Source of the DNA: an uncultured Acidobacteriota bacterium
GTDB lineage: Bacteria; Acidobacteriota; Vicinamibacteria; Vicinamibacterales; UBA2999
Direction of reading: 5' to 3'
DNA: 64,000 nt
NCBI GenBank assembly: GCA_963846425.1
Contig: CAWJVW010000005.1
Location: 2,843,732 to 2,907,731, forward strand
The translations under genes were made by a program, and so were the position numbers. The notes beneath the pieces were generated by a model. The model did not search any database and was not told the origin of the DNA. It saw only the letters and a list, made by a program, of their open reading frames with translations. Below, in pieces: positions 12,414 to 55,828 of this stretch (positions within the stretch are counted from its first letter, which is position 1; each line of letters starts with the position of its first letter).

Positions 12414-13871
12414 ATGGCTGACATGAAGGCTCAGGACGCGTTCGTCACGGAAATTACTCCACAGTCCGACGATTTCTCGCGGTGGTACCTCGACGTCGTG
12501 CGCAAGGCGGAGCTCGCGGATTATTCGCCGGTCAAAGGCTGCATGGTCATTCGGCCTTACGGCTACGCGATCTGGGAGCACATCCAGCGGCAGCTTGACG
12601 ATCGCTTCAAGGCCACCGGCCATGTCAACGCGTACTTTCCGCTCTTCATTCCCGAAAGCCTCCTGAGGCGCGAGGCGGAGCATGTCGAAGGCTTCGCGCC
12701 ACAAGTTGCGTGGGTGACCAAAGGTGGAACCGAAGAGCTCGAGGAAAAGCTGATCATCCGTCCGACCTCCGAGACGATCTTCGGCGTGATGTATCAAAAG
12801 TGGATTCAGTCCTGGCGGGACCTGCCCATGCTCATCAACCAATGGGCCAATGTCGTGCGATGGGAAAAGGTGACGCGCCCCTTCCTGCGTACGACAGAGT
12901 TCCTGTGGCAAGAAGGACACACCGCTCACGAAACCGCCGACGAGGCGCAGGAAGAGACGCTCAAAATCCTGAATCTGTATACGGAGTTTTGCGAGAACGT
13001 CCTGGCCATGCCTGTGATACAGGGCCAGAAGAGCGAAACTGAAAAGTTTGCCGGCGCTGCGAAGACCTACTCGATCGAAGCGTTAGTGCGTGACGGCCGG
13101 GCGATGCAGGCTGGCACGTCACACAACCTGGGGCAGAACTTTGCGAAGGCGTTCGAGATTCAGTTCCAGGGCCGCGACAAGACGCTGCAGTACGTCTGGA
13201 CGACGTCCTGGGGGGTGTCCACGAGACTGGTTGGCGGCCTGATCATGACGCACGGCGATGACAGCGGACTGGTCCTCCCACCCATGGTCGCGCCATGGCA
13301 GGTGGTCATCGTGCCGATTCCACGGGGCAACTGGAAGGAAACGGTGCTTCCCAAGTGTGAGGAGATTCGGAGCGAGCTGGTCGCCGCCGGCGTGCGCGTG
13401 CGTCTCGACGCCGACGAAAGTCAGACACCGGGTTGGAAGTTCTCCGAGTACGAAATGCGCGGCGTGCCGCTGCGACTGGAAATCGGTCCGAAAGACATCG
13501 AGAAAAATGCCGTGTTCGCGGCGCGCCGCGATACGCGTGCGAAACAGTCACTGCCGATGGAGGGGATCGCCGATCGGGTCAGGCAGCTGTTAGCTGAGAT
13601 CCAGGTGTCGCTGTTGTCGAAGGCCCGCGCGTTCCGGGAGGACCACACCAGCCGCACGAGCAGCTATGACGAGTTCAAACAGATCATGGACGGCCGTCCC
13701 GGCTTCGTCATCTCGCCGTGGTGCGAGTCGCCACAGTGCGAGGCTGAGGTGAAAGCGGAAACGCAGGCCACCATCCGCAATATTCCCTTCAACCAGGGAA
13801 CGCCTACGGATCCCTGTATCAAGTGCGGGAAACCGGCCACGATGTACGCCTGGTTCGCGAAAGCGTATTAG
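12414..13871 (+). CDS. proS: Prolyl-tRNA synthetase (archaeal/eukaryote-like type, no insertion domain)
   Basis: Start ATG 12414 (MADMKAQDAFVTEITPQSDDFSRWY...). Class II motifs, C-terminal Zn-binding region ending ...WFAKAY. Confidence 0.9.
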   Translation: MADMKAQDAFVTEITPQSDDFSRWYLDVVRKAELADYSPVKGCMVIRPYGYAIWEHIQRQLDDRFKATGHVNAYFPLFIPESLLRREAEHVEGFAPQVAWVTKGGTEELEEKLIIRPTSETIFGVMYQKWIQSWRDLPMLINQWANVVRWEKVTRPFLRTTEFLWQEGHTAHETADEAQEETLKILNLYTEFCENVLAMPVIQGQKSETEKFAGAAKTYSIEALVRDGRAMQAGTSHNLGQNFAKAFEIQFQGRDKTLQYVWTTSWGVSTRLVGGLIMTHGDDSGLVLPPMVAPWQVVIVPIPRGNWKETVLPKCEEIRSELVAAGVRVRLDADESQTPGWKFSEYEMRGVPLRLEIGPKDIEKNAVFAARRDTRAKQSLPMEGIADRVRQLLAEIQVSLLSKARAFREDHTSRTSSYDEFKQIMDGRPGFVISPWCESPQCEAEVKAETQATIRNIPFNQGTPTDPCIKCGKPATMYAWFAKAY

Positions 13872-13914
13872 GGCAGGTAGGCCAAGTAGGGCGGGTGGGG
13901 CGGGGTAATAGGGC
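13871..13914. repeat. 9-nt-period degenerate tandem repeat (GGTAGG/GGCGGG type)
   Basis: ggcaggtag gccaagtag ggcgggtgg ggcggggta, immediately after the proS stop. Confidence 0.6.
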
Positions 13915-13928
13915 TAGTTTGAAAAACG

Positions 13929-13959
13929 AAGGGCGGCCGGTGCTTACCGGCCGCCCTTT
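13929..13959. terminator. Bidirectional intrinsic-terminator-like hairpin between convergent proS and the OmpA-family gene
   Basis: GGGCGGCCGG-tgctta-CCGGCCGCCC: perfect 10-bp GC stem flanked by AA (5') and TTT (3'). Confidence 0.6.
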
Positions 13960-13987: not shown

Positions 13988-15673
13988 TTACTGCAACCTC
14001 ACGGTCAGAGCCGCACGGCGATTCAGCCGGCGCGTCTCTTCGCGCGAGTTGTCGTGCTTCGGACGCTCTTCGCCGTAGCTCACCGTGCTGAGCCGATCGG
14101 CGCCAATCCCGCGGCTGACCAGGTACTCGCGAACCGCGTTGCTGCGCCGCTCCCCAAGTGCCAGGTTGTATTCGGTCGTGCCGATGTTGCAGGTGTGGCC
14201 TTCCAGCGTGAGCCGGAGTGAGGTGTCGGCCTGCATCGCCTTTACGGCCTCGTCGAGGATGCGCGTCGCTTCAGGTCGCAGCGAGTAGCGATCGAAGTCG
14301 AAATGGACGTCTTCGAACGTGTATTCCTTCCGAGCCGGTGCCACGCACTGAATCGTGATCGTATCGCTCGCCGTTCCGCCCTTGCCGTCGTTGACCGTCA
14401 CGGTGACTGGCACCGAGCCTGGCGTTGCCGGGCACGTGAAGATCGTCTGACGCTCGGCCGGGTTCGCGAAGCTGCCGGTGGGCGCGCTCCACTTGTAGGA
14501 GAGCACGTCGCCATCGGGGTCAGAGGCGTCTGCGGTCACAGTGGACGTCCGGCCCACCTCGACCACGCACGGCTCGCAACGCGCCTTGACCGTCGGCGGT
14601 CGATTCACTACCGGCGGTGGTGGCGGAGGCGGCGGCGGAGGCGCTGGCGCCACGTAGATGCGCACGCCAGGGTGATACCCAATGCGTACCTGATTGCCCC
14701 AGCGGTCGAAGGTCTTTGGCTTGCTGAATGACGCACCAGGCACATCACTGCGGTTCGTCGTATTGAGGCCGTACGACGCGCCGTACCCGATGAAGAATCC
14801 ATTGGGGTGCTGATAAGTCAGTCCCAGGATGAAATCCGCCGGCGAGTCCACTTGCCACGAGGCCGGGGTTCCGTCGGCCGTCACCCCGGTGAACACGATC
14901 TCGTCATCAAAGTACATTTCGCCGGTGAGCTCGGTCGTGACACGGAGACGGCTGCGGCTTGGAAAGCCGGCACCTACACCCCAACGGAACCCATTACTCA
15001 GCTCGTACTGGTCCGGGTCAGCGCGGTACATGAAGCCACCGAACCCTGACAGTTCCACATTGCGCGCCGCTTCGCCGCTGATGATGGCATCGGCCAGGAA
15101 ATCAAACTTCCCGGTGCCGAGCCCTTCATCCGTGTCGGATGTGGGAATTTTCGCGATCGCGCGAATCGCGAACGCCGCCGGTTGCTGACGATACGGTGCC
15201 GTGATGTTGAACTTCGCGCCGAGTCGCACATCCCCAAACCCTGTTTGCCACTGCTGCCACACGAAGGGCTCGTCCATGGGCGTGCCCCCGGATCGCACGG
15301 GCCGTCGATCGGCATCGATCCGGCGCTGCGCGTCGATGCTGCCGAACAACTCGACGTGATCCGAGGCGCCGAATGCAAACGTGCCACGGAAGTTCGAAAT
15401 ATCAGTGAAGGCTTCGGTGCGGTCCCAGTTGACCCGGTACGCGCTCACAGACCACCGGCCCTTCGGCAATACCTCACCAGTGGGGACATACCAAAGGCCA
15501 GTGTCACCGAAGACCGTTGTAGTGGCCGGGCGGGTCGCCGAATCGTCGGGCGGCGGTTGTTGAGTACTCTGGGGCTGTTGAGCACTCTTGTTACCCGGCG
15601 TCTGCGCCCACGCGGGCGACGAGAACAGGGCGCAAAGCACCATGCCCGTGGCCAGCCGGCGATAAAGTCTCAT
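13988..15673 (-). CDS. OmpA-family outer-membrane protein (barrel-like N-domain, poly-Pro linker, Ig/PKD-like domain, OmpA_C)
   Basis: Start ATG 15673 with GGAGG about 10 nt upstream. Signal peptide MRLYRRLATGMVLCALFSSPAWA. Run of 10 Pro. DPDGDVLSYKWSAPTG Ig-like segment. C-terminal OmpA peptidoglycan-binding motif (GHTCNIGTTEYNLALGERRSNAV...NRR). Confidence 0.85.
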   Translation of the reverse strand: MRLYRRLATGMVLCALFSSPAWAQTPGNKSAQQPQSTQQPPPDDSATRPATTTVFGDTGLWYVPTGEVLPKGRWSVSAYRVNWDRTEAFTDISNFRGTFAFGASDHVELFGSIDAQRRIDADRRPVRSGGTPMDEPFVWQQWQTGFGDVRLGAKFNITAPYRQQPAAFAIRAIAKIPTSDTDEGLGTGKFDFLADAIISGEAARNVELSGFGGFMYRADPDQYELSNGFRWGVGAGFPSRSRLRVTTELTGEMYFDDEIVFTGVTADGTPASWQVDSPADFILGLTYQHPNGFFIGYGASYGLNTTNRSDVPGASFSKPKTFDRWGNQVRIGYHPGVRIYVAPAPPPPPPPPPPVVNRPPTVKARCEPCVVEVGRTSTVTADASDPDGDVLSYKWSAPTGSFANPAERQTIFTCPATPGSVPVTVTVNDGKGGTASDTITIQCVAPARKEYTFEDVHFDFDRYSLRPEATRILDEAVKAMQADTSLRLTLEGHTCNIGTTEYNLALGERRSNAVREYLVSRGIGADRLSTVSYGEERPKHDNSREETRRLNRRAALTVRLQ

Positions 15674-17172: not shown

Positions 17173-18792
17173 ATGCGCAGCTATAGATCGTTGACGGCCG
17201 CGACCCTCGCCATACTTCTGTCTGCCCTCGCTGGCGGCGTATTCGGCCGCAGTGCGCTGGCACGGGAAGATCGACTCCCCGAGCATTACAAGACCTTTAC
17301 GGCGGCCCTTAACGCGATCCAAACGAATTACGTCGACACAGTCGAAGCCGACCGCCTGGTTTACGGCGCCATCAACGGGATGTTGCAGACGCTCGACCCG
17401 CATTCGGCCTTCATGGACCCCCGCACGTACGCGCAGATGCGGGAGCGGCAAGAAGGCCGCTATTACGGTCTGGGCCTGACGATCGTCGCGGTCGATGGGG
17501 ATATCACTGTGATGCGGGTCTTCGAGGGCTCGCCGGCATTTGGGAAGGGCATTCGACGCGGTGACGTGATTGCGCGGATTGAAGGAGAGGACGCCAAGGG
17601 TTGGACGAGCGACCAGGCTGTTCGTCGCCTCAAGGGTCCCAAGGGCAGCTTCGTGTCAATCGGTGTCCGCCGCAAGGGGATGGACGACCTAATTCCCATG
17701 GACGTCATGCGGGATGAAATCACCATCCCGGCCGTAACCGCTCATTTCATGGTGGATGCGCAGACCGGCTACGTTCGCATCGACGACTTTGCCGAGCACA
17801 CAGAGGAAGAACTGACCAATGCGCTCGAAGCGATGCAGTCCAAAGGGATGAAGCGCCTCGTCCTCGACGTCCGAAGCAATCCCGGAGGACAGCTCGATCA
17901 AGCCATTAGGATGGTCAATTTGTTCGTTCAGCGCGGGTCGATGATCGTGTACACGCGCGGACGCGAGAAGAACGCCGATCAGGAATATCGCGCGACGGAA
18001 AACGGTCAGTTCCTGACCAATCCGATGATCGTGCTCGTCAACCGCAGCAGCGCCAGCGCCTCCGAGATCGTCGCCGGTGCACTGCAGGACTATGACCGCG
18101 CGCTGGTCGTTGGCGAAACGACGTTTGGAAAAGCGTTGGTGCAGTCGGTGTACCGGGTGAGCCAGGGTGCCGGGCTCGCACTCACGACCGCTCGCTACTT
18201 CACGCCGAGTGGCCGGCTGATCCAGCGGCCGTGGGACGGCTCGTTCGACGAGTACCTGACATACACGCTGAAGGATCAGTCAGAGCGTCCGCACACGGCC
18301 GAACAGTTGAAATACACCGCGGGCGGCCGCAAGGTCTACAGCGGCGGTGGCATTGAGCCGGATCGACGATTCGATGGACCATACGAGGGCTTCAGCCCAA
18401 CGATGTTCGGCCGTACCCTGTTCGCAAGGCAACTGTTTGCCAGCTACGCCGAGCAGTTTTCGGCAGAAGGCGACACACGCGCGGGCTCGCAGGGCAAGAA
18501 TCGCAAGTCCGTTCGTCGCGGCTTCACGGTGGACGATGCGATGATCCAGGACTTCAAGCAGTTTGTCGCCGGCCGCAAGATCACCGTCGATGAGGCAGCC
18601 TTTGCAAAGGACAAGGCCTTCGTCCGCGCGATCATTCGCTACGAGATCGATCTGGCGCTCTTCAGCGCCGCCTACGCGCGGCAGCGGTTGATGGCCGACG
18701 ATCCCCAGGCCCAGTTCGCCTTGAGCCTCTTTCCCGAAGCTGAGAAGCTGACGGAGCTGGCCAAGACCCGAACCACGAAAGTTGGGCAGTAG
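17173..18792 (+). CDS. Carboxyl-terminal processing (tail-specific) protease, S41 family, with PDZ domain
   Basis: Signal peptide, PDZ (GDVIARIEGEDAKGW), catalytic regions NRSSASASEIVAGALQD and GETTFGKALVQS. Confidence 0.9.
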   Translation: MRSYRSLTAATLAILLSALAGGVFGRSALAREDRLPEHYKTFTAALNAIQTNYVDTVEADRLVYGAINGMLQTLDPHSAFMDPRTYAQMRERQEGRYYGLGLTIVAVDGDITVMRVFEGSPAFGKGIRRGDVIARIEGEDAKGWTSDQAVRRLKGPKGSFVSIGVRRKGMDDLIPMDVMRDEITIPAVTAHFMVDAQTGYVRIDDFAEHTEEELTNALEAMQSKGMKRLVLDVRSNPGGQLDQAIRMVNLFVQRGSMIVYTRGREKNADQEYRATENGQFLTNPMIVLVNRSSASASEIVAGALQDYDRALVVGETTFGKALVQSVYRVSQGAGLALTTARYFTPSGRLIQRPWDGSFDEYLTYTLKDQSERPHTAEQLKYTAGGRKVYSGGGIEPDRRFDGPYEGFSPTMFGRTLFARQLFASYAEQFSAEGDTRAGSQGKNRKSVRRGFTVDDAMIQDFKQFVAGRKITVDEAAFAKDKAFVRAIIRYEIDLALFSAAYARQRLMADDPQAQFALSLFPEAEKLTELAKTRTTKVGQ

Positions 18793-18918: not shown

Positions 18919-21900
18919 ATGCGTCTCGAACGTCTCGAAATAGCCGGTTTCAAGTCATTTTCTGACCGCTCCGAACTGTCGTTTGACCGCGGCGTAACGG
19001 CGATCGTCGGCCCGAACGGATGCGGCAAGAGCAACGTCGCCGACGCTCTCACCTGGGTGATGGGCGAACAGAGCGCGAAGAGCCTGCGCGGCGAGCGGAT
19101 GGAGGATGTCATCTTCAGCGGGTCGGATGCCAGAAAGCCGACCGGCGCGGCAGAAGTACGTCTTCGATTCAGCGGTGTGGCCGTGGCCCCGAGTGTGATT
19201 CCAGGGGTTGACGGTCCCGCCCATGAAGCTGAACCGCCTGTCCCTGCAAACGGCGGCGGCAACGGGAACGGCCACGGAAGCGGGCATCACGTTCAGGACT
19301 TGCTCGACGCGGTACGAGAGGTCGAAGTCACCCGCCGCTTGTACCGATCAGGCGAAAGCGAATACCTCATCGACGGTCACACCTGCCGCCTGCGCGATAT
19401 TCACGAGCTTCTGATGGACACGGGCCTCGGCGCAAAGGCCTACGCCATCATCGAGCAAGGAAAGATCGGGCTGATTCTGAGCTCGCGGCCAACTGATCGC
19501 CGTCAACTCATCGAAGAAGCAGCGGGCATCACCAAATACAAGTCACGTCGTCGGGCGGCGGAGCTCAAGCTCGAAGCCGCTCAGCAGAACCTGACGCGGA
19601 TCGACGACATCGTCTTCGAAGTGGAGAAGCAGCGCGGGTCGCTCAAGCGCCAGGCTGCGAAGGCGCGACGCTATACGCGGTTGCGCGATGAGATGCGCCG
19701 TTGGGAAAAGGTGTTGTTCGCGCGCCGCTACCGCTCGCTTGGCGAAGTCATCGAATCGACCCGCGGGCGGTTGAGCGAGACCCGCGCGCAGGAGGCGCGC
19801 GCGGCCGCACGCCTCGCGGAAGTTGAAAACGAACTGGGACGCGTACGAATCGAGCTTGCCGAAGCAGAGTCGGCCGCGACCGAGGCGCGCGAGACGGCCC
19901 ACGCGCGCGAACTCGACATGAATCGCCGTCAGCAACAAATCGCGCTCGACGCCCAGCAAGCCGCCATGCTTCAAGCGCGCGCTGACGAGCTCGAAGTCGA
20001 GCGGGTGAGTCTCGATGGGCGTCGTGAGCCTGAGCGGGTTGCACTCGAAGAGCGTCGCACCGCCGCCGCGGACGCCGAGCGAACACGCGACGAGTCGGCG
20101 GCGATTGTTGCAGCGGCCATCGCAGAGCACGCGCAGGCGCAACAGGTCATCGAGGCCGCGGAGCAGGATGTCGAGCGCGCACGCGGCGAAGTCTACGCGG
20201 TCATGAATACGATCACCGCGTTGACCGCGGCGCTGGAGGCCGCAACGGCGCAGCGCGAACGCTCTGCCGAGGCCTTGAGCCGGCTCGAGATGGAAGGCGC
20301 CGATTTGCGCACCGAATACGATCGCGCGGAGGCCGCGCGGCTGGCAGCCAGCGCTGGGCTGACCCGTGCACGCGAGGATTTGGATGAGACCACGCTTGCG
20401 CGGGCGGCGCGCGAATCCGAACTCGCAACTGCGCGCACCGAACACGAATGGCGCGCGCGCGAACTGCGCTCGGGCGAGCATCAACTGGCCTCGCTGACAG
20501 CCCGGCTCACCTCGCTCGAAGAACTCGATTCGCATCGCGCGGGGTTCAGCGATGCCGCGCGCATGGTGTTGGTCGAAGCCAACGGCCGCGTTGGACAAAT
20601 GGGCGCCCTGGCAGACGTCATCGACGTGGAGCCGCGGTTCGAACGTGCCGTCGAGGCCTGCCTCGGGGAACTACTCCAGCACGTGCTGGTGCTGCGCCAT
20701 GAGCGGGCCGAGGCCGGCCTTGCGCTGGTGCGTGAAAAGGACGCGGGACGCTGCGGCTTCATCGTGGTGGGGGCAGGTAGCGCTGGTGCCTCAGGTGCCT
20801 CAGGTGCCGCGGGTGCCGCGGGTGCCTCGAGACTTCCGGATGACGCCGTCCTGTTGTCGAGCGTCGTGCGCGTAGCTAGCGAGCATGAAGAAGCCCTTCG
20901 CGAGGCGATGGGCGAAGCCATCATCGTTGACACGTTCGGGCAGGCGCGCGAGCTATCGGCCCTCTCCTCCCTGCCGGTGGCGACCTTGGATGGCGACGTC
21001 CTCCGCGGCACGCGCCTGGTCGCCGGAGGCGGAAAGGTTGAATCGCGCGGGATCCTGGCCACCAAGCGAGAGATCAAAGAGCTGCGCGAGCGCGTCGCGG
21101 TTGAGCGCAACGTCCTACAACACCTCGTCGGAGAGACGACGGAGTTCCAGGAGGCGATCGCGCACGCGTCCGCCGCTGTGACGGCGCTGGCCGCCGAGCT
21201 GCATCGCCAGGAAAAGTCGATCGTTTCGGTGGAAGCCCTGGTGCAGCGGGCGTCCGAGGACGAGACCCGACTCTCCCATCGCCGCGAGCTCGTCTCGGCA
21301 GAAACGCACCGGGCGACCGAGGAAATCGCGACCCTTGATGCCAGGCAGACCGAAGCGCGCGAATCAATCGCGCGTCTCGACGGTGAACGAACTGCGGCCG
21401 AATCCGCGCTGGCCGACGCGCAACGTGTGTTGGCGACCGCCCGCGAACGCTCCGACGCGCTTGCGCAACGTGCCGCTGAAGCTCGCGCCATGCATGCCGC
21501 ACTTGTCGAGCGCACTGCTGGAGTCGTCGCGGACGTTCGTCGTCTCGAGGAGGGAGCGCGCGAACTGGAGCGCCGCGTGGAGACCTGTGCCAGCGACATC
21601 ACGTTGATGCGGGATCAGCGGGAGCGTCTCCTCGCGGTCGTGGCCGACGGACATACCCTGGTTGACGCCGATGTGCGCACGCTGGATGGACTTCGCGAGC
21701 ATATGCGTGAGGCCGATGACAAGGCGATGGCGCTCAAGGCTGCGACGGATCAGCAGGAAGAGATGATTCGCGACGCAAGGCGCGCCGTCGACGCCGTCAG
21801 GGCCCTTGGGGCAGAACTCGACGTGACGCGCGCGACTGCCGAGTCTGATCTCGCTCATCTCGGCCAGCAGTGCTTCGACGCCGTCAACCAACCGCTGGAG

Positions 21901-22728
21901 GACGTTCGCGTCGAGGTGGAGCAGATGGAAGCCGCCGGCGTCATCGAGCCCGATGCGAACGCTATTCGTGCAGTCGAGGCACCGGAACCCGATGAAGAGG
22001 AGGACGCTGCCGGCGTCGGCCTGGAACCGGTGACCGAACCCACGGGCTTGGAGGGCGAGCTCTCGGCTCCGCCAGCGCCCGTTCGCATGACCGCCGAAGA
22101 GGCAATCATCGAGCTCCGCGCCAAGATCGACAAGCTCGGTCCTGTCAACATGATGGCGATCGAACAGTTCGCCGAGCTCGATGAGCGTCACGGCTTCTTG
22201 ACGACTCAGCGGAAAGATTTGGTCGATTCAATCGCCCAGACCAACGAAGCAATCAAGCGCATCGACGAAACCACACACGCGCGATTCCGCGAAGCGTTCA
22301 CGGCCATCAACACGAACTTCCAAGAGACGTTCTCGACGTTGTTCGGCGGCGGCCGCGCCGGCCTCACGCTGCTCGATGAAGGCGACCCGCTCGAGAGTGG
22401 GATCGACATCGTCGCCTCGCCGCCCGGCAAGCGCCTCCAGAGCGTGATGCTCCTCTCGGGTGGTGAGAAAGCACTCACCGCCATCGCCCTGATGTTCGCG
22501 ATCTTCCAATACAAGCCCAGCCCGTTCTGCGTGCTCGACGAGATCGATGCGCCGCTCGACGATGCCAATATCGGCCGATTCGTGGAGATGCTGCGCGGCA
22601 TGCTGGATCGCACGCAGTTCATCATCATCACGCACAACCGGAAGACGATGGAGATTGCGGATCGCCTCTATGGGGTGACAATGGAGGAGCCGGGAGTGTC
22701 GAAGCTGATTTCGATACAGCTCAACTAA
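18919..22728 (+). CDS. smc: Chromosome segregation protein SMC
   Basis: Start ATG 18919 (MRLERLEIAGFKSF...GPNGCGKSN Walker A). Long coiled coils, hinge, C-terminal LSGGEKALTA and Walker B CVLDEIDAPLD. Confidence 0.95.
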   Translation: MRLERLEIAGFKSFSDRSELSFDRGVTAIVGPNGCGKSNVADALTWVMGEQSAKSLRGERMEDVIFSGSDARKPTGAAEVRLRFSGVAVAPSVIPGVDGPAHEAEPPVPANGGGNGNGHGSGHHVQDLLDAVREVEVTRRLYRSGESEYLIDGHTCRLRDIHELLMDTGLGAKAYAIIEQGKIGLILSSRPTDRRQLIEEAAGITKYKSRRRAAELKLEAAQQNLTRIDDIVFEVEKQRGSLKRQAAKARRYTRLRDEMRRWEKVLFARRYRSLGEVIESTRGRLSETRAQEARAAARLAEVENELGRVRIELAEAESAATEARETAHARELDMNRRQQQIALDAQQAAMLQARADELEVERVSLDGRREPERVALEERRTAAADAERTRDESAAIVAAAIAEHAQAQQVIEAAEQDVERARGEVYAVMNTITALTAALEAATAQRERSAEALSRLEMEGADLRTEYDRAEAARLAASAGLTRAREDLDETTLARAARESELATARTEHEWRARELRSGEHQLASLTARLTSLEELDSHRAGFSDAARMVLVEANGRVGQMGALADVIDVEPRFERAVEACLGELLQHVLVLRHERAEAGLALVREKDAGRCGFIVVGAGSAGASGASGAAGAAGASRLPDDAVLLSSVVRVASEHEEALREAMGEAIIVDTFGQARELSALSSLPVATLDGDVLRGTRLVAGGGKVESRGILATKREIKELRERVAVERNVLQHLVGETTEFQEAIAHASAAVTALAAELHRQEKSIVSVEALVQRASEDETRLSHRRELVSAETHRATEEIATLDARQTEARESIARLDGERTAAESALADAQRVLATARERSDALAQRAAEARAMHAALVERTAGVVADVRRLEEGARELERRVETCASDITLMRDQRERLLAVVADGHTLVDADVRTLDGLREHMREADDKAMALKAATDQQEEMIRDARRAVDAVRALGAELDVTRATAESDLAHLGQQCFDAVNQPLEDVRVEVEQMEAAGVIEPDANAIRAVEAPEPDEEEDAAGVGLEPVTEPTGLEGELSAPPAPVRMTAEEAIIELRAKIDKLGPVNMMAIEQFAELDERHGFLTTQRKDLVDSIAQTNEAIKRIDETTHARFREAFTAINTNFQETFSTLFGGGRAGLTLLDEGDPLESGIDIVASPPGKRLQSVMLLSGGEKALTAIALMFAIFQYKPSPFCVLDEIDAPLDDANIGRFVEMLRGMLDRTQFIIITHNRKTMEIADRLYGVTMEEPGVSKLISIQLN
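20782..20826 (+). repeat. In-frame 9-nt tandem repeat (NNNGGTGCC x5) inside the smc hinge region
   Basis: gctggtgcc tcaggtgcc tcaggtgcc gcgggtgcc gcgggtgcc, encoding AGASGASGAAGAAGA. Same core as the intergenic GGTGCC elements. Confidence 0.8.
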
Positions 22729-22758
22729 GGTTCTCCGGAACCTTGGCCCCCAGGAACC
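22727..22758. repeat. GGTTC/GGAACC inverted/tandem motif element (hairpin AAGGTTC-tccg-GAACCTT) after smc
   Basis: aaggttctccggaaccttggcccccaggaacc overlaps the smc stop codon. 7-bp stem plus a further GGAACC copy. Confidence 0.5.
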
Positions 22759-22786
22759 GTATGTACCCCTAAAGGTGGGCAGCTTT

Positions 22787-23623
22787 ATGTACGCCAGCGC
22801 TCGAAAAATCACACAATTTGCCATGATCGCTGCGGTCGCCGCAGCTCTTGCGGCCTGCGACATCGCGGTTGATGGACACGGCGGCTTCGGCTTCGACTTG
22901 GCGGTTGGCAAGGCGCAGGACGAGTGGACGCGTACCTATAAGGTGGCCGCTGGTGGGCGGCTCGAGATCATCAACGTCAACGGCCGGATTTCGGCCGAAC
23001 CCTCCGAGGGGCCTGACATCGAAGTGCGGGCCGAACGCAGCGCCAAATCGCTGAGCGATGATCAGGCCCGGGAGCTGCTCGCGAAACTCGAAATGCGTGA
23101 AGAGGTGGGCCCCGACCGCGTCCGCGTCGAAGTCCGCGCCCCTCGCTTCAATGGCCCGTCAGGTCACGAGATCAAGTGGACGATCAAGGTTCCAAAGGGT
23201 GTGGCCGTCGATCTGCGCACCGTCAATGGTGGCGTCCACATGTCAGCGCTGCAGGGCGACATTCGCGCCCGCAGCACCAACGGTGGGATCGTCGGATCAG
23301 GCCTTGCGGCTTCGAGCGTGGATGCCTCCGTGACCAATGGCGGCGTGGAAATCGAGCTGGCAACGGCCCCCTCCAGCGGGACGTTCGATCTCGAGAGCGT
23401 CAACGGCGGCGTGACCCTTTCGCTGCCCGCAGCAAGCAAGGCTGACATCGCTGCACGCTGCGTCAATGGCGGCATCTCCGTCACAGGTCTCGACGTCGAA
23501 GTCATCGGTGAAAAGACCCGTCGTCGGCTGGACGGCAAACTGAATGGCGGTGGGGGAGCACGGGTGTCGATGGAAACTGTCAACGGCGGTGTGAAGATCG
23601 GGCGTTCTGGCGGGACTACGTAA
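22787..23623 (+). CDS. DUF4097-like (putative adhesin/toast-rack) lipoprotein
   Basis: Lipobox ALAAC. Repeated VNGG-I/V beta-strand motif (VNGRIS, VNGGVHM, TNGGIV, VNGGVTL, VNGGISV, VNGGVKI). ATG 22787 has a better RBS than GTG 22775. Confidence 0.7.
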   Translation: MYASARKITQFAMIAAVAAALAACDIAVDGHGGFGFDLAVGKAQDEWTRTYKVAAGGRLEIINVNGRISAEPSEGPDIEVRAERSAKSLSDDQARELLAKLEMREEVGPDRVRVEVRAPRFNGPSGHEIKWTIKVPKGVAVDLRTVNGGVHMSALQGDIRARSTNGGIVGSGLAASSVDASVTNGGVEIELATAPSSGTFDLESVNGGVTLSLPAASKADIAARCVNGGISVTGLDVEVIGEKTRRRLDGKLNGGGGARVSMETVNGGVKIGRSGGTT

Positions 23624-23725
23624 GGTGCCTGAAGTGCCTAAGGTGCTTGGGTGCACCGGATCCCGGCGGCGGGCACTCTCGGCACGCATCGCACTCTAGG
23701 GACTCTAGGCACCCCAGGCACCTTG
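23622..23725. repeat. GGTGCC-type element: 4 direct 9-nt units, spacer, 6 inverted 9-nt units
   Basis: Left arm: aaggtgcct gaagtgcct aaggtgctt gggtgcacc. Right arm: ggcactctc ggcacgcat cgcactcta gggactcta ggcacccca ggcaccttg. Confidence 0.8.
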
Positions 23726-23752
23726 CCCGTGGCATACTGCCACCACGGGCCT

Positions 23753-24901: not shown

Positions 24902-24936
24902 CCGTCATATTTGGCTCTCGTTATTGGAGCGGACAT

Positions 24937-25851
24937 ATGAAACTCACTCGCGCGGCAGTCGTTGCCGTGTTATTTCTATCCGTCGTGTCCGTGCAGACGC
25001 AATCCATGCGCAAGACGAATGTCGCGCACAGAGGAGCATCTGCCTATGCTCCGGAGCACACACTGGCGTCCTATCGTCTGGCCCTCGAACAAGGCGCCGA
25101 TTTCGTCGAGCAGGACTTGGCAGTGACCAAAGACGGAGTGCTGATCTGCCTTCACGACCCCACGCTCGAGCGTACGACCAACGTCGAGGAGCTGTTCCCC
25201 GATCGCGTCTCACAGGTGACCTGGGAGGGAAAAACCGTCCAAGGCTGGCTCGCGAACGACCTGACGCTTGCCGAGATCAGACAGCTCGACGCAGGATCGT
25301 GGTTCGATCCGAAATTCAAGGGCGAGAAAATTCCGACCTTCGACGAAGCGGTGGCGCTCGTCAAGGGAAAGGCGGGAATGTTTCCGGAGCTCAAGACGCC
25401 GGAGGTCTATAAGGGGCGCAACGTGAACTTCGAGATGCTGGTCGCCGCCGCGCTTGACAAACACGGGCTGCGCGGCCCGAAGGCCGACCCCAAGACCCCG
25501 ATCATCCTGCAAACCTTCAGCGAGTCGAGCGCGAAGAAACTGGCCACGATGAAAATTGGGGTGCCGGTGGTGTTGCTGATGTCGAACGGGAAAGGCTGGG
25601 AATCGGCGGCGAAGGTGAAGGAGTGGAAGGCCCATGTGCAGGGCCTCGGTCCTGCCAAGGCTATTGTGGAGTCCAACCCCGATCTCGTGAAGTGGGCGCA
25701 TGCCGAGGGCCTGACGGTCGTGCCCTACACATTTCGATCGTCCAACTCGGGGAAGCATCCCACGGTGAAGGCCGAGATGGAGCACTTCCTCTACACGCTC
25801 GGCGTTGACGGCTTGTTTACAGACAACCCGGATCAATTCCCACGACGATAA
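24937..25851 (+). CDS. Glycerophosphodiester phosphodiesterase (GlpQ-like, secreted)
   Basis: Start ATG 24937 with GGAG upstream. Signal peptide. HRGASAYAPEHT and E/D catalytic motifs of the GDPD family. Confidence 0.85.
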   Translation: MKLTRAAVVAVLFLSVVSVQTQSMRKTNVAHRGASAYAPEHTLASYRLALEQGADFVEQDLAVTKDGVLICLHDPTLERTTNVEELFPDRVSQVTWEGKTVQGWLANDLTLAEIRQLDAGSWFDPKFKGEKIPTFDEAVALVKGKAGMFPELKTPEVYKGRNVNFEMLVAAALDKHGLRGPKADPKTPIILQTFSESSAKKLATMKIGVPVVLLMSNGKGWESAAKVKEWKAHVQGLGPAKAIVESNPDLVKWAHAEGLTVVPYTFRSSNSGKHPTVKAEMEHFLYTLGVDGLFTDNPDQFPRR

Positions 25852-25853
25852 AC

Positions 25854-43117: not shown

Positions 43118-44671
43118 CTATTCTTTGCGGATCGTCACGAAATTCTGTTGACCATTCCTCAGAATCAGGAGAAATGCCGTCCCCCCGCTTGGCACCTGCG
43201 CGAGTGCGCGGCTGGCCTCCTGCGGCGAGGTCACGGGGCGACGATTGACCTGCAGAATGATGTCCCCGCGGCCAATGCCAGCCCGCTGAGCGGCGCTACC
43301 CACCTCGACATCGGACACCAACACGCCCTGGGTGTCAGGTGGCACGCGCAACCTCCGCGCCGTGTCCGCCGTCAACGCGCTGACTTCCATGCCGAATCCG
43401 GTTGTCTCTTCGATGTCCGGATCATCCGTACCGCTACGTGCGGTAACGCCAGCCTCACTTTCGAGATCCAGCTCATTGACGGTGACGGTCAGCGAACGTT
43501 CCTGTTTGTCGCGCAGCACCTTGATGGGGACTGACGATCCAGGTTTTGTCGCGACCACCATCGACACGAGCTGATCGCGGCGCTGTATTGGCTTGCCGTT
43601 GAATTCGATGATTACGTCGCCGGGTTCGAGGCCTGCTTTGTCAGCTGGGCCGCCGCTGTTCACGCTTCCCACGAGCGCGCCACGGCGTTCCTTGAGACCG
43701 AATTCTGCCAGCGCGCTCAACGGCACGTCCTGGACGGTCACGCCAATGACTCCGCGTGTGATCTTGCCGCCCCGCAACTGCGGAAGCAGATCGCGCACAA
43801 CGTTGATCGGAATCGCGAACCCGATGCCGAGGTTGCCTTGCTGACGCGAATCCGAATAAATGGCCGTGTTGATCCCGACGACCTCGCCGCGCACGTTCAG
43901 GAGCGGTCCGCCGGAGTTGCCCGGATTGATGGCCGCGTCCGTTTGAATCACGTCTGCCCACCGGCCCGTGCTGACGGGCAGGCCACCGGGACGTGCGGCG
44001 CTGACCACGCCCACGCTGACCGTATGGGCGAGATTAAATGGATTGCCGATGGCCATCACCCAATCGCCAGGGGCGATCTGCGCAGAGTCGCCGAACTTGA
44101 CTTCCGCAAGCGCGGTCTTCGGCTTCTCGGTGAGCTCGATGAGCGCGCTGTCGGTCAGCGGATCTCGCCCGACAACCTTCGCCTGGTAGCTGATTTCCTC
44201 GTCCCCGTACATGAAGACCTCGATTTTGGTCGCGCCTTCGACGACGTGGTTGTTGGTGAGGATGTAGCCATCCTTGCTGATGATGAAACCGGTGCCGGCG
44301 GCAACGGCAACCTGCTCGCGCGGCCGCTGCTGTTGGCCTTGGCCCTGGCCCTGGCCTCGGCCAGGCTGGCCGCCGAAAAAGCGCTCGAAGAGGTCATCAC
44401 CGCCGAAAAACTCCGTGAGCTCTGTGGCGCGCTGACGCGATTCGGTGCGGATGTTGACGACCGATGGGCTCACGACCTTGGCGATGTTGCGAAAGGTGCT
44501 CGCGTCAACGGGCCCGCTCAGCGGCGCGCTGTTGGTCGCTGGTGCGGAGATGGCCTGCTGCGCCATCGAAGGCGGCGACAGGTCGAGACGCGACGCGATC
44601 ACCATCCCGACGGCCAGCGATGCCACACCAATCAGCAGCCCGTAGAACACCGTCGTTTTACGACTAGACAT
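43118..44671 (-). CDS. HtrA/DegP/DegQ-family periplasmic serine protease with two PDZ domains
   Basis: Catalytic triad context (TNNHVV, DSALIEL, GNSGGPLL). Two PDZ segments. N-terminal TM/signal anchor. Confidence 0.9.
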   Translation of the reverse strand: MSSRKTTVFYGLLIGVASLAVGMVIASRLDLSPPSMAQQAISAPATNSAPLSGPVDASTFRNIAKVVSPSVVNIRTESRQRATELTEFFGGDDLFERFFGGQPGRGQGQGQGQQQRPREQVAVAAGTGFIISKDGYILTNNHVVEGATKIEVFMYGDEEISYQAKVVGRDPLTDSALIELTEKPKTALAEVKFGDSAQIAPGDWVMAIGNPFNLAHTVSVGVVSAARPGGLPVSTGRWADVIQTDAAINPGNSGGPLLNVRGEVVGINTAIYSDSRQQGNLGIGFAIPINVVRDLLPQLRGGKITRGVIGVTVQDVPLSALAEFGLKERRGALVGSVNSGGPADKAGLEPGDVIIEFNGKPIQRRDQLVSMVVATKPGSSVPIKVLRDKQERSLTVTVNELDLESEAGVTARSGTDDPDIEETTGFGMEVSALTADTARRLRVPPDTQGVLVSDVEVGSAAQRAGIGRGDIILQVNRRPVTSPQEASRALAQVPSGGTAFLLILRNGQQNFVTIRKE

Positions 44672-51999: not shown

Positions 52000-53646
52000 A
52001 TGATGCCACTCGAAAGAGTCCCGCGTTACGTCTTCGCGGTCGTTGCGATGGTGGGGCTCGGCGCAACCACGCAGGAGCCGCGGTTACATCTGCCGCCGCT
52101 CGACCGGGTGCTGCCACCGCGCGCGGAGACGATCTACCGCGCCGTCGCCCCGCTGGTCGACACGCGGGTGGCGATGGAGACCGTGAGCTTCATGAGCCCT
52201 CTGTGGCGCCTCGCCGGGAATCCGAGCTACGACCGCTCGCTCGACCACATTGCTGCCGCACTCACTCGCGGCGGGTTCGCCTCGTCGTCTGCTCACCAGG
52301 CAGCGCGGCATTGGATCGATGCATTCGACAACGCCGGCCACGGGTGGGAACAGGAACGAGGGACGCTGGCGATTGAAGGCAGCTCGCGCGAAGTCGTGTT
52401 GTCACGCGATCAGGATCGACTGGCGCTCTGCATCAACTCGTTCTCGACAGAACCCGGAGGTGTCGTGCTGCCGCTCGTGGACGTGGGAGCCGGCCAACCG
52501 GCCGACTTCGAGGGCAAGGACGTCAAGGGCACGGTCGTGCTTGGCGATGCGGCCGTCGGCGATTTGTGGACGCGCGCGGTGCGTGAACGGGGCGCGGCCG
52601 GCGTCATCTCGACTGACATTGCCATCTATACGAGGCCCGAACAGACGCCCAATGTCCTGCAGTGGGGAAGCATTCCTTATGACGACGCACGTCGATCGTT
52701 TGGCTTCAAAGCTACCCCTCGAGCCGCGGGTCTACTCCGCACGGCGGCCGCGTCAGGGCATGTCCGGGTCCACGTCGACGTGGCGACGACATTTCACCGT
52801 GGCCGCAACCGCACGCTGACTGCGGAGATTCCAGGCAGCCAACGCGCAGACGAGCGGGTGGTGCTCGTTGCGCACGTCCAGGAGCCCGGCGCGAACGACA
52901 ACGCCAGCGGCTCGGGAACGCTGCTCGCGACTGCGCTCGCCCTTCGCAATGCGATCGCCAAAGGCGCGATTTCAGCCCCTCGGCGCACGCTGACGTTCAT
53001 GTGGCTTGACGAGATCCGCGGAAGCGAACAATGGATCAAGGCTGATCCCGAGAGGGCGCGCCGCGTCGTCGCGATGATGTCGCTCGACATGACTGGCCAG
53101 GACACTCCAAAAACCGGCGGCACGTTTCTGATCGAGAAATCACCAGACCCCTCAGCTATCTGGCCGCGGCCGTCAGACCCACATTCGGAGTGGGGCGCTG
53201 GGGAGGTCGATCGGACGCTCGTCCGCGGGCACTTCCTCAATGACTTCCACCTCGCGGTGGCGCTGCGACGCGCGCGTGACACAGGCTGGATTGTCCGTAC
53301 GAATCCTTACGAAGGGGGGAGTGATCACACAGTCTTTACGCAGGCTGCGGTACCGGCGTTGCTCAACTGGCATTTCACCGATCGCTACTACCACACCAAC
53401 CTGGACACGCCTGACAAGACGAGCCCGGTGACCATGGGGCATGTTGGGACGGCGGTGGGGACGTCGGCGATGTTTCTGGCGGCGGCCGATTCGTCAGACG
53501 GCCCGGCGCTCGCTCGGCTGGTTGAGGCGGCAGAGCGCGCCCGCCTGGAAACCGAGGGCCGAAACGCCGCCAGCGCAGAAATTCTCGCCGCGTGGAAGCA
53601 GTGGTATCAGGAGGCGCGGGCGAGCGTCACGGCTCTCGCACGCTGA
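52000..53646 (+). CDS. M28 family metallo-aminopeptidase with PA-like insert
   Basis: VLVAHVQEPGANDNASGSGTLL (Zn ligand region), MSLDMTG, GGSDHTVF motifs. Confidence 0.8.
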   Translation: MMPLERVPRYVFAVVAMVGLGATTQEPRLHLPPLDRVLPPRAETIYRAVAPLVDTRVAMETVSFMSPLWRLAGNPSYDRSLDHIAAALTRGGFASSSAHQAARHWIDAFDNAGHGWEQERGTLAIEGSSREVVLSRDQDRLALCINSFSTEPGGVVLPLVDVGAGQPADFEGKDVKGTVVLGDAAVGDLWTRAVRERGAAGVISTDIAIYTRPEQTPNVLQWGSIPYDDARRSFGFKATPRAAGLLRTAAASGHVRVHVDVATTFHRGRNRTLTAEIPGSQRADERVVLVAHVQEPGANDNASGSGTLLATALALRNAIAKGAISAPRRTLTFMWLDEIRGSEQWIKADPERARRVVAMMSLDMTGQDTPKTGGTFLIEKSPDPSAIWPRPSDPHSEWGAGEVDRTLVRGHFLNDFHLAVALRRARDTGWIVRTNPYEGGSDHTVFTQAAVPALLNWHFTDRYYHTNLDTPDKTSPVTMGHVGTAVGTSAMFLAAADSSDGPALARLVEAAERARLETEGRNAASAEILAAWKQWYQEARASVTALAR

Positions 53647-55780
53647 GCGCGGCGGCCGACGCCGGCGCGTACATCTCCGTGATGTACTGCTTCAGCATGC
53701 GTCGCGCGGAGAACCGAGGCAAGTTGGAGCGAATGGCTTCGCGCACGATCTGGATCCAGCGCCTTGGTACCAGGCGCTCGTCACGTTCATAGAACGCCGG
53801 GACGATCTGCTCTTCCAACAGTCGATAGAGCGCTTCGGCATCGGCCGCATCGGTCGCAGGATGGTCGTCCGGGTTTGTGTGGCTTTCTATGAGCCAGCCA
53901 TTTCGCCCGTTGAACCCCTCGGCCCACCACCCGTCTCCGATGCTCAGATGCGGGACGCCGTTCAGCGAGGCTTTCATACCGCTCGTCCCGCTCGCTTCGA
54001 GCGGCTTGCGCGGGTTGTTGAGCCACACGTCACAGCCCCCGACGAGACAGTGCGCGACGTGCAAGTCATAGTCGTCGATGAAGGCCACGCGTCCCGCGTA
54101 TGTCGGATCCAGCGTGCGCCGGAAGACCTGCTGTAAGTGGTGCTTGGCTGGATCGTCGGCGGGATGCGCTTTGCCCGCAAACACGATCTGCACCGGGCGA
54201 TTTGCCGCCGTGAGGATGCGGGCGAGCCGTACCGGGTCGTGAAAAATGAGCTCAGGGCGCTTGTACGCCGTAAAGCGCCTGGCATAGCCGATCGTCAGAG
54301 CATGTGCATCGAGCATGGCACCACCTCGAACGATCTGTGGTGGAGCGACGCGATCGGCCGCCCAACGTTGGCGCAGGCGTTCGCGAATGAACGTGAACAA
54401 CTCTGCGCGCAGCGTCTGGCGTGCGGCCCAGATATCCTCGTCCGGGATGTCGGTCAGCTGATCCCAGAACGATTGATCATCGTGACGGTCCAACCACGAG
54501 GGTCCGAGGTGCCGGTTGAAGAGATCCAGCATGGGACCGGCTATCCAGGTCGGGACGTGGACGCCATTGGTGATCGACTTGACGGGCACGCTGTCTGGCG
54601 TCAGCTCTGGCCAGATTGGCTGCCACATCTTGCGCGTGACCTCGCCGTGCAGCGCACTCACGCCGTTGACGTGTGCGGCCGTGCGCATGGCGAGCGCCGT
54701 CATGTTGAACTGCGGGCCGTTGCCATTGTCGTATTCGCCAAGGGCCAGGAAACGTTGGCGATATTGGCCGATGTCCCCCCAACAACCCGCAAGGTGCTTT
54801 TCGACCAACTGGAATGGAAAGGCATCATGGCCGGCTGGCACTGGCGTGTGGGTCGTGAATACCGTGCTGCTCCGCACTTCGTCCAGAGCGCTGTCAAACG
54901 ACGATCCGCGCTCGAGGAGCTCGCGAATTCGCTGAAGCGCCACAAAGGCGGCGTGACCCTCGTTGAGGTGCCAGACGGCAGGCTCGATCCCGAGCGCACG
55001 GAGGACACGCACGCCGCCGATGCCGAGGATGATTTCCTGCTGCACGCGCGTTTCACGGTCGCCACCATACAGCCGTGCCGACAACTCGCGATCCCACGGC
55101 GCGTTCTCTTCCAAATCGGTGTCGAGGAGAAACAGTCGCACGCGGCCGACACGGACGCGCCAGACCGCCGCCAGCACCGTTCGATCGCCGAGCGGCACTG
55201 CGGTGAGAGCTGGTTTCCCGTCGCGGGTGATTGCCGTATCAATAGGTGTGTCTGTCCAGGTCAGGCGTTCGTAATGCTCCTGCTGCCACCCCTCATTCGA
55301 GATGCGCTGGTGGAAGTAGCCCTGGGGATACATGAACCCCACGCCTACCAGCGGCACGCCCAGATCACTGGCTTCCTTGCAGTGATCGCCAGCCAAAACG
55401 CCAAGGCCGCCGGCATAAATGGGTAACGATTGGTGCAAGGCGAACTCTGCCGAGAAGTACGCGATGACCTTTCCGTTGAGCGCCGGCCCGTTTTGCGCCC
55501 ACCATGTGCCCTTGGCAGCACGGGCCTGGTCGAGACCTGCGAGTGCCGCGTCGTACAACGCCACGAACTCAGGATCCTCCGCAGCCGAACGCAAGCGCTC
55601 TTCGTCGATGTTGATGAGCATGCGCACCGGGTTGTGCGACGAAAGTTGCCACAGCGGATAGTCGAGGCGCCGAAACACTTGACGGGCGGCGGGAGTCCAA
55701 CTCCACCACAGGTCGAGCGAGAGCTCGGGCAGACGGTGAATGCGGCTGGGTACCGGGGCGGCGAGCGCGAAGCGTTCCAT
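53627..55780 (-). CDS. glgP: Alpha-glucan (glycogen/maltodextrin) phosphorylase, GT35
   Basis: 717 aa. LEASGTSGMKASLNGV PLP-lysine motif. 20-nt convergent overlap with the M28 gene. Confidence 0.9.
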   Translation of the reverse strand: MERFALAAPVPSRIHRLPELSLDLWWSWTPAARQVFRRLDYPLWQLSSHNPVRMLINIDEERLRSAAEDPEFVALYDAALAGLDQARAAKGTWWAQNGPALNGKVIAYFSAEFALHQSLPIYAGGLGVLAGDHCKEASDLGVPLVGVGFMYPQGYFHQRISNEGWQQEHYERLTWTDTPIDTAITRDGKPALTAVPLGDRTVLAAVWRVRVGRVRLFLLDTDLEENAPWDRELSARLYGGDRETRVQQEIILGIGGVRVLRALGIEPAVWHLNEGHAAFVALQRIRELLERGSSFDSALDEVRSSTVFTTHTPVPAGHDAFPFQLVEKHLAGCWGDIGQYRQRFLALGEYDNGNGPQFNMTALAMRTAAHVNGVSALHGEVTRKMWQPIWPELTPDSVPVKSITNGVHVPTWIAGPMLDLFNRHLGPSWLDRHDDQSFWDQLTDIPDEDIWAARQTLRAELFTFIRERLRQRWAADRVAPPQIVRGGAMLDAHALTIGYARRFTAYKRPELIFHDPVRLARILTAANRPVQIVFAGKAHPADDPAKHHLQQVFRRTLDPTYAGRVAFIDDYDLHVAHCLVGGCDVWLNNPRKPLEASGTSGMKASLNGVPHLSIGDGWWAEGFNGRNGWLIESHTNPDDHPATDAADAEALYRLLEEQIVPAFYERDERLVPRRWIQIVREAIRSNLPRFSARRMLKQYITEMYAPASAAALSVREP

Positions 55781-55793
55781 CGGGGATCAGATT

Positions 55794-55828
55794 AAAGGCA
55801 AAAGGCCAAAGGCAAAAAGCAGAAAGTG
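55794..55828. repeat. AAGGCA-type direct repeat element (same family as 28581-28673)
   Basis: aaaggcaaaaggccaaaggcaaaaagcagaaagtg, filling the spacer between the dehydratase stop and the glgP start. Confidence 0.65.

Follow-up and report, generated by a model that had tools for sequence, protein, structure and literature searches.

Tandem heptamer repeats of the short tandemly repeated repetitive (STRR) type have been known since 1990, and neither their function nor their origin is understood. In cyanobacteria such repeats can fold into intercistronic hairpins, as in the hupS-hupL spacer, and transcript stabilization or coupling of translation has been proposed for them (PMC2670836). Here we analyze a 64-kb stretch of DNA (hereafter the window) on contig CAWJVW010000005.1 of an uncultured member of the Vicinamibacterales (Acidobacteriota), in which arrays of 7-9-nt units, many of them paired with an inverted array, follow stop codons and fill spacers between genes. 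We read these elements as hairpin-forming long simple-sequence repeats (SSRs) that resemble the cyanobacterial repeats, that is, as stem-loops at 3' ends and between cistrons built by slippage, and we hold this reading with about as much confidence as doubt. They are a known but poorly understood kind of element and not a new class, and the feature is lineage-wide, lineage-specific and statistically strong rather than local.

Prokaryotic long SSRs have units of 5-11 nt, of which heptamers are the most frequent (reported in PMC4679880), and slippage has been proposed to account for the heptamer excess (PMC4679880; PMC4692102). Geobacter metallireducens carries 3-5 tandem units of 7-9 nt that are paired on opposite strands at variable distance, among them the paired sites GTTGCTYN x 4, TCTCCGTS[Y] x 3 and MTYCTGA x 5, as well as a GGGACCG x 4 family, a four-repeat element present in 49 copies (PMC2700814). 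The GGGAATC heptamers of Xanthomonas and GGGGAYT heptamers of Nostoc are intergenic and lie nearer the end of the upstream open reading frame (ORF); the genes around them are mostly co-directional or convergent, their length differs from one related species to another, and some of the Xanthomonas repeats form inverted pairs (PMC4692102). Beggiatoaceae have intergenic TAACTGA arrays of 2-6 copies that obey a strong positional rule relative to ORFs (PMC4679880). Repetitive extragenic palindromic (REP) sequences, bacterial interspersed mosaic elements (BIMEs) and REP doublets forming hairpins (REPINs) are extragenic, biased toward 3' ends and the interior of operons, and arranged as inverted doublets with predicted hairpins in single-stranded DNA or mRNA (PMC3116915).

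Periodic arrays and hairpins in the window

We detected arrays with Tandem Repeats Finder (TRF) and with a lag-p identity scan, which covered the 28 window spacers of 25-400 nt and was set against 200 dinucleotide-preserving shuffles. Lag scores of at least 10 occur in 8 of the 28 spacers (shuffle mean 0.07, maximum 1) and scores of at least 12 in 7 (shuffle mean 0.01), an enrichment that bears out the initial annotation of this DNA from its sequence. That annotation had listed 13 short-period arrays, with 3-10 copies of a unit, as the substance of most spacers; the observation is real yet overstated. TRF and the lag scan together find period 7-9 arrays at eight of these loci (23622, 28581, 28978, 30003, 31813, 39434, 43032 and 55794), the rest being weak, remnants or not short-period. 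Among the 23 spacers of the range that the annotation described, 8 hold strong arrays and 3 weaker ones, and copies number 2.5-5 per arm. Units run head to tail with periods of 7, 8 or 9 (TRF); coding arrays inside the window have a period of 6 or 9. The elements are as follows.

23622-23725, plus strand: periodic-arm hairpin, period 9, unit AAGGTGCC/GGCACCYY (TRF)
28581-28673, minus strand: periodic-arm hairpin, period 7, AAGGCAN/NTGCCTT (TRF score 47, z -4.4)
28978-29020, minus strand: period-8 GGAAC/GTTCC palindromic array (lag score 14, z -2.6)
30003-30063, minus strand: periodic-arm hairpin, period 8, GAAGCRC (TRF, z -4.9)
31813-31898, minus strand: periodic-arm hairpin, period 9, GGTCTGGTR (TRF score 63-76, z -3.9)
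43032-43113, minus strand: periodic-arm hairpin, period 8, GGTTCAGR (TRF; minimum free energy (MFE) -47.2, z -6.5)
39434-39515, minus strand: direct-only period-9 array with a GTGCC core, about 9 copies (TRF)
55794-55828, minus strand: direct-only period-7 array, AAAGGCA x 4.6 (TRF score 43, lag score 16)
25854-25896, no strand assigned: weak period-8 GAAGC element with a small hairpin (lag score 7.5, fold z -1.3)
13871-13914, plus strand: weak G-rich period-9 array (TRF score 30, lag score 9.5, z -0.1)
22727-22758, plus strand: short GGTTCC hairpin remnant after smc, with no array score in the window
20785-20829, plus strand: in-frame period-9 repeat GGTGCCTCA (Gly-Ala-Ser) in smc (TRF score 60)

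Inverted arms are present at 23622, 28581, 28978, 30003, 31813 and 43032, where 1-5 alternative pairing registers each reach 74-92% complementarity and the sense strand folds with z between -2.6 and -6.5 (-3.9 to -6.5 at five of the six). The hairpin potential ascribed to the elements at large therefore stands at 5-6 of the 13 loci; it fails at 39434, 55794, 13871, 36564 and 31459, and folding against shuffled controls is weak or shows no structure outside the six.

The element at 23622, between the hypothetical gene and the M48-like peptidase gene, takes the TAA stop codon into its first unit and offers five inverted pairing registers (MFE -56.9, z -5.0). At 28581, in the rpsO-pnp spacer, the hairpin begins 5-8 nt past the rpsO stop codon and likewise has five registers, while the array at 28978, in the truB-rpsO spacer, is flanked on both sides by conserved segments of the rpsO leader. 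The 5' arm of the hairpin at 30003 covers the final 30 nt of the nrnA-like DHH gene, whose stop codon falls within the loop (gene ends here follow the gene calls of L081, a near-identical contig). The element at 31813 fills the infB/DUF503 spacer with 30-nt arms that are 80% complementary, and that at 43032, between htrA and the CYTH-domain gene, starts 4 nt past the htrA stop codon, with five registers of 77-85% complementarity.

Two strong arrays are direct only. That at 55794 begins 1-3 nt past the stop codon of the gene for an enzyme dependent on pyridoxal phosphate (PLP), and neither an inverted-repeat search nor folding (z -0.3) finds a hairpin there. The array at 39434-39515 lies between the sugar-phosphate isomerase gene and asnS; its sense RNA is C-rich and unstructured (fold z +2.0, with 200 of 200 shuffles folding equally well or better), and an inverted-repeat search found no partner arm. 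The C-rich tract of this GGCAC array (sense, minus strand) would resemble a Rho loading site.

Among the weaker elements, that at 25854 sits in the convergent spacer between GDPD and the cupredoxin gene, and that at 13871 directly abuts the proS stop codon. Next to the latter, at 13929-13958, a classical bidirectional terminator with a 13-bp GC-rich stem and A and T runs on either side separates the convergent proS and OmpA-like genes, so ordinary terminators coexist with the periodic hairpins and are built differently. The smc repeat at 20785-20829, for which no inverted partner was found, is how the same slippage process shows itself in a coding region. Two listed loci were rejected as members: 31459-31490 (minus strand) is an 11-mer, GGTCAGTGGCC, repeated once at 21-nt spacing (lag score 8.5, z -1.8), and 36564-36616 (minus strand), which lies after rimO and upstream of the rimP promoter and leader, comprises three weak copies of about 17-18 nt (lag score 4.5, z +0.9).

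A terminator scan called no periodic hairpin as U-tailed, apart from a weak sub-hairpin at 25859-25874, and its calls in total equal the shuffle expectation; the early statement that few elements have T-tracts and that they are not simple intrinsic terminators is borne out. With Rfam 15 the sole match in the window at the gathering threshold is a tRNA, and at E <= 1 nothing relevant appears over 22600-32000. A CRISPR array was rejected, as the annotation had also judged, because the units are 7-9 nt and directly abut instead of forming 24-48-nt repeats with unique spacers; the only match to an Rfam CRISPR-DR family lies within the pnp coding sequence (E = 0.91).

Occurrence, placement and turnover across relatives

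The polynucleotide phosphorylase (PNPase) encoded in the window (26299-28536, minus strand) has its best relatives, at 72-80% amino-acid identity, in metagenome-assembled Vicinamibacterales or, more broadly, Acidobacteriota. We applied an ad hoc array detector to 80 Acidobacteriota loci taken around pnp; L-numbers denote individual loci. Non-coding array density is 2-7 per kb in the nearest relatives (L001, L002, L006, L008, L024 and L048) and 0.9 per kb in L012, with about 0.1 per kb in the coding DNA of these array-rich loci; most other Acidobacteriota loci have no arrays. The relatives' units are mostly heptamers (period 7 in 27 of the 47 non-coding arrays of the array-rich loci), and arrays within genes there mostly have a period of 6 or 9. 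Most non-coding arrays with a period of 7-10 have an inverted partner within 300 nt (z 4-37), as do none of the coding period 6/9 arrays, and in more than half of the non-coding elements array and inverted array form imperfect stems of 20-35 bp with several pairing registers. The architecture is clearest in L001, where CAGCTTC x 3.7 is followed by a 46-nt loop and GAAGCTG x 8. On the window's own contig, about 7-9 kb to its left, a gene for a type II secretion ATPase ends within a TCGTTCT x 4.9 array (L087 2946-2979), which covers its TAG stop codon and takes up the whole spacer before the next gene; given this array and their frequency in the nearest relatives, the elements are not confined to the window. 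They occur in contigs named by the conventions of MEGAHIT, SPAdes and a long-read assembler and are therefore not an assembly artifact.

Placement relative to genes is strict. In the window and eight array-rich relatives taken together, none of the 15 divergent spacers has an array, where the density in other spacers would predict about 6; occupied spacers number 20 of 78 among co-directional gene pairs and 7 of 11 among convergent pairs. For 43 elements in the window and relatives, the median distance from stop codon to element start is 6 nt (interquartile range 2-28), with 29 of 43 at 9 nt or less, and some arrays extend over the stop codon or the final codons before it. The initial annotation was thus right to place the elements outside genes, at 3' ends or intercistronically and within a few nucleotides of a stop codon, and to see in this position a resemblance to REP sequences and BIMEs. 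The window's gene map, listed below, rests on family searches and on the gene tables of L081 and L087, the latter a locus on the window's own contig.

12405-13871, plus strand: proS
13988-15448, minus strand: OmpA/Pal-like gene
17173-18792, plus strand: S41 peptidase gene
18919-22728, plus strand: smc
22775-23623, plus strand: hypothetical gene
about 23753-24901, plus strand: M48-like peptidase gene
24898-25851, plus strand: GDPD
25905-26258, minus strand: cupredoxin gene
26299-28536, minus strand: pnp
28679-28948, minus strand: rpsO
29059-29973, minus strand: truB
30034-31017, minus strand: nrnA-like DHH gene
31010-31450, minus strand: rbfA
31522-31803, minus strand: DUF503 gene
31901-34699, minus strand: infB
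34740-35987, minus strand: nusA
35993-36469, minus strand: rimP
36617-38095, minus strand: rimO
38133-39428, minus strand: asnS
39515-40399, minus strand: sugar-phosphate isomerase gene
42414-43004, minus strand: CYTH-domain gene
43118-44671, minus strand: htrA
53627-55780, minus strand: glucan phosphorylase-like gene
55830-57077, minus strand: PLP enzyme gene

To follow individual spacers we compared the window with contigs retrieved through an exact protein match to ribosomal protein S15: L081, a 3.3-Mb metagenomic contig 99.95% identical to window positions 18670-38948, and L082-L086, relatives at 80-95% nucleotide identity. Over the 20 kb common to the window and L081 the sole indel is one 9-nt unit of the GGTGCCTCA repeat in smc (5 units in the window, 4 in L081); at this identity no unit-number variation was seen in the intergenic arrays. 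Further away, orthologous spacers differ by presence or absence and by unit while their flanks stay conserved, in the comparison that the annotation had proposed. Orthologous arrays in L083 differ in copy number. The rpsO-pnp spacer holds the AAGGCAN hairpin in the window, L081 and L085, TTNCCAG in L083, L084 and L086, and AAGTTCAAAGTGCC in L082. L081 and L084 share the truB-rpsO array of the window, L082 and L083 differ at this spacer, and its presence/absence alleles exchange 41 nt for 9 nt without duplication of the flanks. At the site of the 23622 hairpin L083 has direct GGCACCT copies, and L082 has a GGGATCAGG hairpin that is unrelated; at 25854, GGAAGCGC units in L083 and a CAAGTTN hairpin in L082; at 30003, a larger CACGGAGA hairpin in L082 and none in L083. 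Downstream of infB, relatives carry unrelated heptamer hairpins (AGGGCTC in L008, GAGTTMA in L048). The asnS-rimO spacer, array-free in the window, has a CAGTTGC hairpin in L083, and the remnant after smc has a complete counterpart in L083, a hairpin made of GGTTCCA x 5 and inverted copies, TGGAAC.

The recurrence of unit families at distant sites, also claimed initially, is near chance inside the window and above the null across the 80 related loci. In the window, 4 locus pairs share 9-mers (3.4 for random segments) and 2 share 10-mers (1.1), the only standouts being the 12-mer GCACAGAAGCAC (25854 and 30003) and AAAGGCAAAAG (28581 and 55794); no consensus beyond 11-12 nt is shared between loci, in the 64 kb or among the related loci. 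Over the 80 loci, identical heptamers recur at distant sites in 25 pairs, compared with 6.1 under a unit-shuffle null (maximum 15). Some same-unit spacer pairs are common to several genomes (GGAAC in the smc-hypothetical gene and truB-rpsO spacers, GAAGC in the GDPD-cupredoxin and nrnA-truB spacers). Among the window, L082 and L083, unit sharing is not significantly higher within than between genomes (p = 0.13), so that homogenization of units within a genome is not supported; together with the cross-genome pairs, this makes the unit vocabulary look inherited rather than recently spread.

The same architecture can also arise within coding sequence. In L001, L008 and L024 the RimO linker, between GTGEV and LPxYxYD, is encoded by in-frame heptamer arrays with inverted copies that flank a conserved PLTFF-like motif, and the unit differs in each of the three genomes:

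L001 1128-1242: rimO linker array, fold z -2.8
L008 988-1089: rimO linker array, fold z -6.2
L024 1054-1184: rimO linker array, fold z -4.8

Some inverted arrays are far apart. L024 has pairs at 12593/12855 and 533/661, with loops of 228 and 103 nt, and a CATCTGC array at 18212-18242 whose reverse complement stands 3.9 kb away, at 22095-22116, so that the two bracket two genes.

Conserved leader segments adjoin several of the variable elements. In the pnp leader (28537-28580, sense minus) the segment CGGGGAACGTGACCCCATCGAGGCTTTATG, with a small hairpin and a Shine-Dalgarno sequence, is kept in L082-L085 and persists while the periodic hairpin just upstream is swapped; it may be a PNPase regulatory element. 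In the rpsO leader (28949-29058, sense minus) the variable GGAAC array is flanked by two conserved parts, a 5' hairpin beginning CTCGGCGAGCCTGAAATCGCCG and a 3' segment that ends GGAGGACACC-GTG; the leader is a candidate for S15 autoregulation and has no match among the Rfam S15-leader families. Upstream of rimP (36470-36560, sense minus) a TAAAAT box is followed, immediately before the start codon, by a U-tailed hairpin, GTGGGCCTTTAGCCCAC-TTTTTGTGTTT; L083 has kept this element, which is a candidate for attenuating the rimP-nusA-infB operon.

Origin and possible role of the hairpins

Slippage is supported as the origin of the arrays, and as the means of their remodeling, by the unit indel that segregates in smc, by the heptamer excess together with the survival of only multiples of three in genes, and by orthologous arrays that differ in size and unit. 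Replication slippage would insert or delete whole units, and with both arms periodic a unit gained on either arm would lengthen the stem without any position-specific compensating mutation; because periodic arms pair in several registers, such hairpins should evolve easily. Either selection on the stem or template switching within a strand could keep the arms complementary, and the direct-only arrays would be the same raw material without a partner arm. The arrays would be transcribed within the 3' end of the upstream gene, where the stem-loops could impede 3'-to-5' exonucleases or serve as sites of double-strand processing and so uncouple the stability of neighboring cistrons. Such a role, long proposed for REP and STRR hairpins, is the most likely one here, as we infer from sequence and placement: it fits best with the strict 3'-end position and the absence from divergent spacers, and with the repeated appearance, in several relatives, of hairpins that occupy the same spacers yet are built from unrelated units.

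Several observations weigh against this reading. Some members are direct only and unstructured when folded. Among 25 oriented elements, stem energy and G-U counts favor the sense strand in about 9, the antisense strand in 8 and neither in 8, so nothing points specifically to selection at the RNA level. By analogy with the Escherichia coli pnp leader, an rpsO-pnp hairpin might be expected in all relatives; this was rejected, because in L005, L006, L013 and L048 the spacer is short and unstructured and has no hairpin. The truB-rpsO array is absent in L086, the window's own rimO (37600-37770) has no linker hairpin (z 0.48), and the hairpins are dispensable at any given site. A 3'-end bias is also expected if insertions are merely tolerated there, and the relatives' gene maps are the output of a crude ORF caller.

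The main rival, which we consider possible though clearly less probable, is that the elements are a neutral by-product: a slippage-prone lineage would gather 7-10-nt SSRs at harmless positions (in 3' spacers, in protein linkers and at in-frame sites), and quasi-palindrome template switching during replication would make and homogenize functionless arms. Presence, absence and replacement between genomes that are 92-95% identical, and the lack of a hairpin at orthologous sites in several relatives, agree with this, as do the near-perfect Watson-Crick arms, the missing G-U strand asymmetry, arrays that reach up to and into gene ends as if limited only by constraint, and in-frame versions in smc and the rimO linker. 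Arm-to-arm similarity (0.86) exceeds that between neighboring units within an arm (0.76), which fits copying from arm to arm and is only suggestive, because choosing the best register biases it. However, tolerance at 3' sites leaves the empty divergent spacers to be explained, as it does the recurrence of hairpins with different units at rpsO-pnp, downstream of infB and in the rimO linker; inverted arms around one conserved peptide motif in three genomes, with three units, are unlikely to come from independent slippage. A bolder proposal, which we think improbable, is that the inverted arrays do not result passively from slippage and that a lineage-specific process or selection at the level of nucleic acids builds same-unit arrays and symmetrizes them about a point, even in coding sequence such as the rimO linker, and might link distant same-unit arrays. 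The CATCTGC arrays of L024 (18212/22095) might be an example of long-range RNA pairing that brackets cistrons.

We find it hard to see the elements as intrinsic, possibly bidirectional terminators that work without a U-tract, and regard this as quite unlikely. They do stand directly past stop codons and are enriched in convergent spacers, and the convergent GDPD/cupredoxin spacer has no hairpin-like structure other than 25854-25896, but none is U-tailed, while the window's own terminator at 13929-13958 is a classical GC stem with a U-tail; moreover, the conserved rimP-nusA-infB-rbfA-truB-rpsO-pnp train contains many of them, and strong termination at each of its gene boundaries is implausible, and the direct-only members could not terminate in this way. 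Miniature mobile DNA, either REPIN-like or of the miniature inverted-repeat transposable element (MITE) type, mobilized by a transposase elsewhere in the genome such as a REP-associated tyrosine transposase (RAYT) and with unit families as mobile lineages, is very unlikely in our judgment. The inverted-doublet hairpins resemble REPINs (PMC3116915), distant spacers can repeat one unit (CCAGTTG and AGGGCTC twice each in L008, CATCTGC twice in L024), and 11-12-mers are common to 25854/30003 and 28581/55794; yet no consensus longer than about 12 nt is shared, the presence/absence alleles lack terminal repeats and target duplications, same-unit pairs that cross genomes (p = 0.13) point to vertical inheritance rather than recent spread, and there is no RAYT or other transposase among the window's annotated genes. 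Equally, arrays of protein-binding sites with one protomer per unit, as proposed for the Geobacter paired sites (PMC2700814) and for heptamer direct repeats bound by cold-shock proteins (PMC4679880), would account for regular unit spacing and paired sites, but unit and period (7, 8, 9 or 10) change between loci and between orthologous spacers, so that no sequence-specific binder fits, and the arrays are absent from divergent (promoter) spacers; we give this explanation very little credence.

Whichever reading holds, these elements provide an independent system, in an unrelated and abundant soil lineage, for testing the STRR-type architecture, with dense and strictly 3'-placed elements, fast turnover at orthologous sites and in-frame versions in genes. 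If the hairpins set mRNA ends or the stability of single cistrons, operon regulation in Acidobacteriota would include a major layer that evolves easily, and annotation of terminators and gene starts in these metagenome-assembled genomes would have to take the elements into account. Neutral elements would be a clear natural example of slippage and template-switch mutagenesis shaping compact genomes, and a symmetrizing process, if real, would be an undescribed mechanism that makes modular RNA or DNA hairpins to order.

Comparison with described repeat systems

The absence of an Rfam match, of U-tails and of a long shared consensus sets these elements apart from REP elements, CRISPR arrays and canonical terminators. 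Membership of a REP-like superfamily, as first suggested, fails because no consensus exceeds 11-12 nt and, among the window's annotated genes, no REP-associated transposase could be linked to them: REP sequences have a conserved, over-represented sequence and a RAYT transposase, and their arms are not micro-tandem arrays. We rejected REP sequences, BIMEs and REPINs for want of a 20-40-nt consensus, with 9-10-mer sharing at the level of random segments and units that vary between orthologous spacers, and MITEs for want of conserved copies and of a target duplication at the truB-rpsO alleles (41 nt versus 9 nt).

Among the heptamer systems, the Beggiatoaceae repeats consist of one conserved unit, direct only, immediately upstream of start codons, whereas the elements here follow stop codons. 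Those of Xanthomonas and Nostoc use a single G-rich, quadruplex-prone unit; in the window only the array at 13871-13914 is G-rich. The GGGACCG heptamer of Geobacter also forms arrays in L024 (12593-12623) and L012 (8062-8092), but the Geobacter classes each have a conserved consensus in 16-49 copies, read as sites for global regulators, whereas here nearly every locus has its own unit.

A literature search found no description of such elements for Vicinamibacterales, and the view that they belong to no described class nonetheless gives way before the precedents in cyanobacterial STRR, Geobacter, Xanthomonas and long SSRs. With the STRR sequences, their nearest known counterparts, they share tandem repeats of about 7 nt, an intergenic or intercistronic position, several unit types per genome and the capacity to form hairpins (PMC2670836). 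They differ in their host, an acidobacterium, in periods that range over 7-10 (7-9 in the window), in units that are more degenerate and much more varied, and perhaps in unit recurrence, which is near chance in the window and above the null across the 80 related loci; cyanobacteria have high-copy unit families. Long SSRs match them in unit sizes, in the heptamer excess and in the restriction to multiples of three within genes; that class, however, is defined by direct repeats only, whereas most of the non-coding arrays described here are paired with an inverted array.

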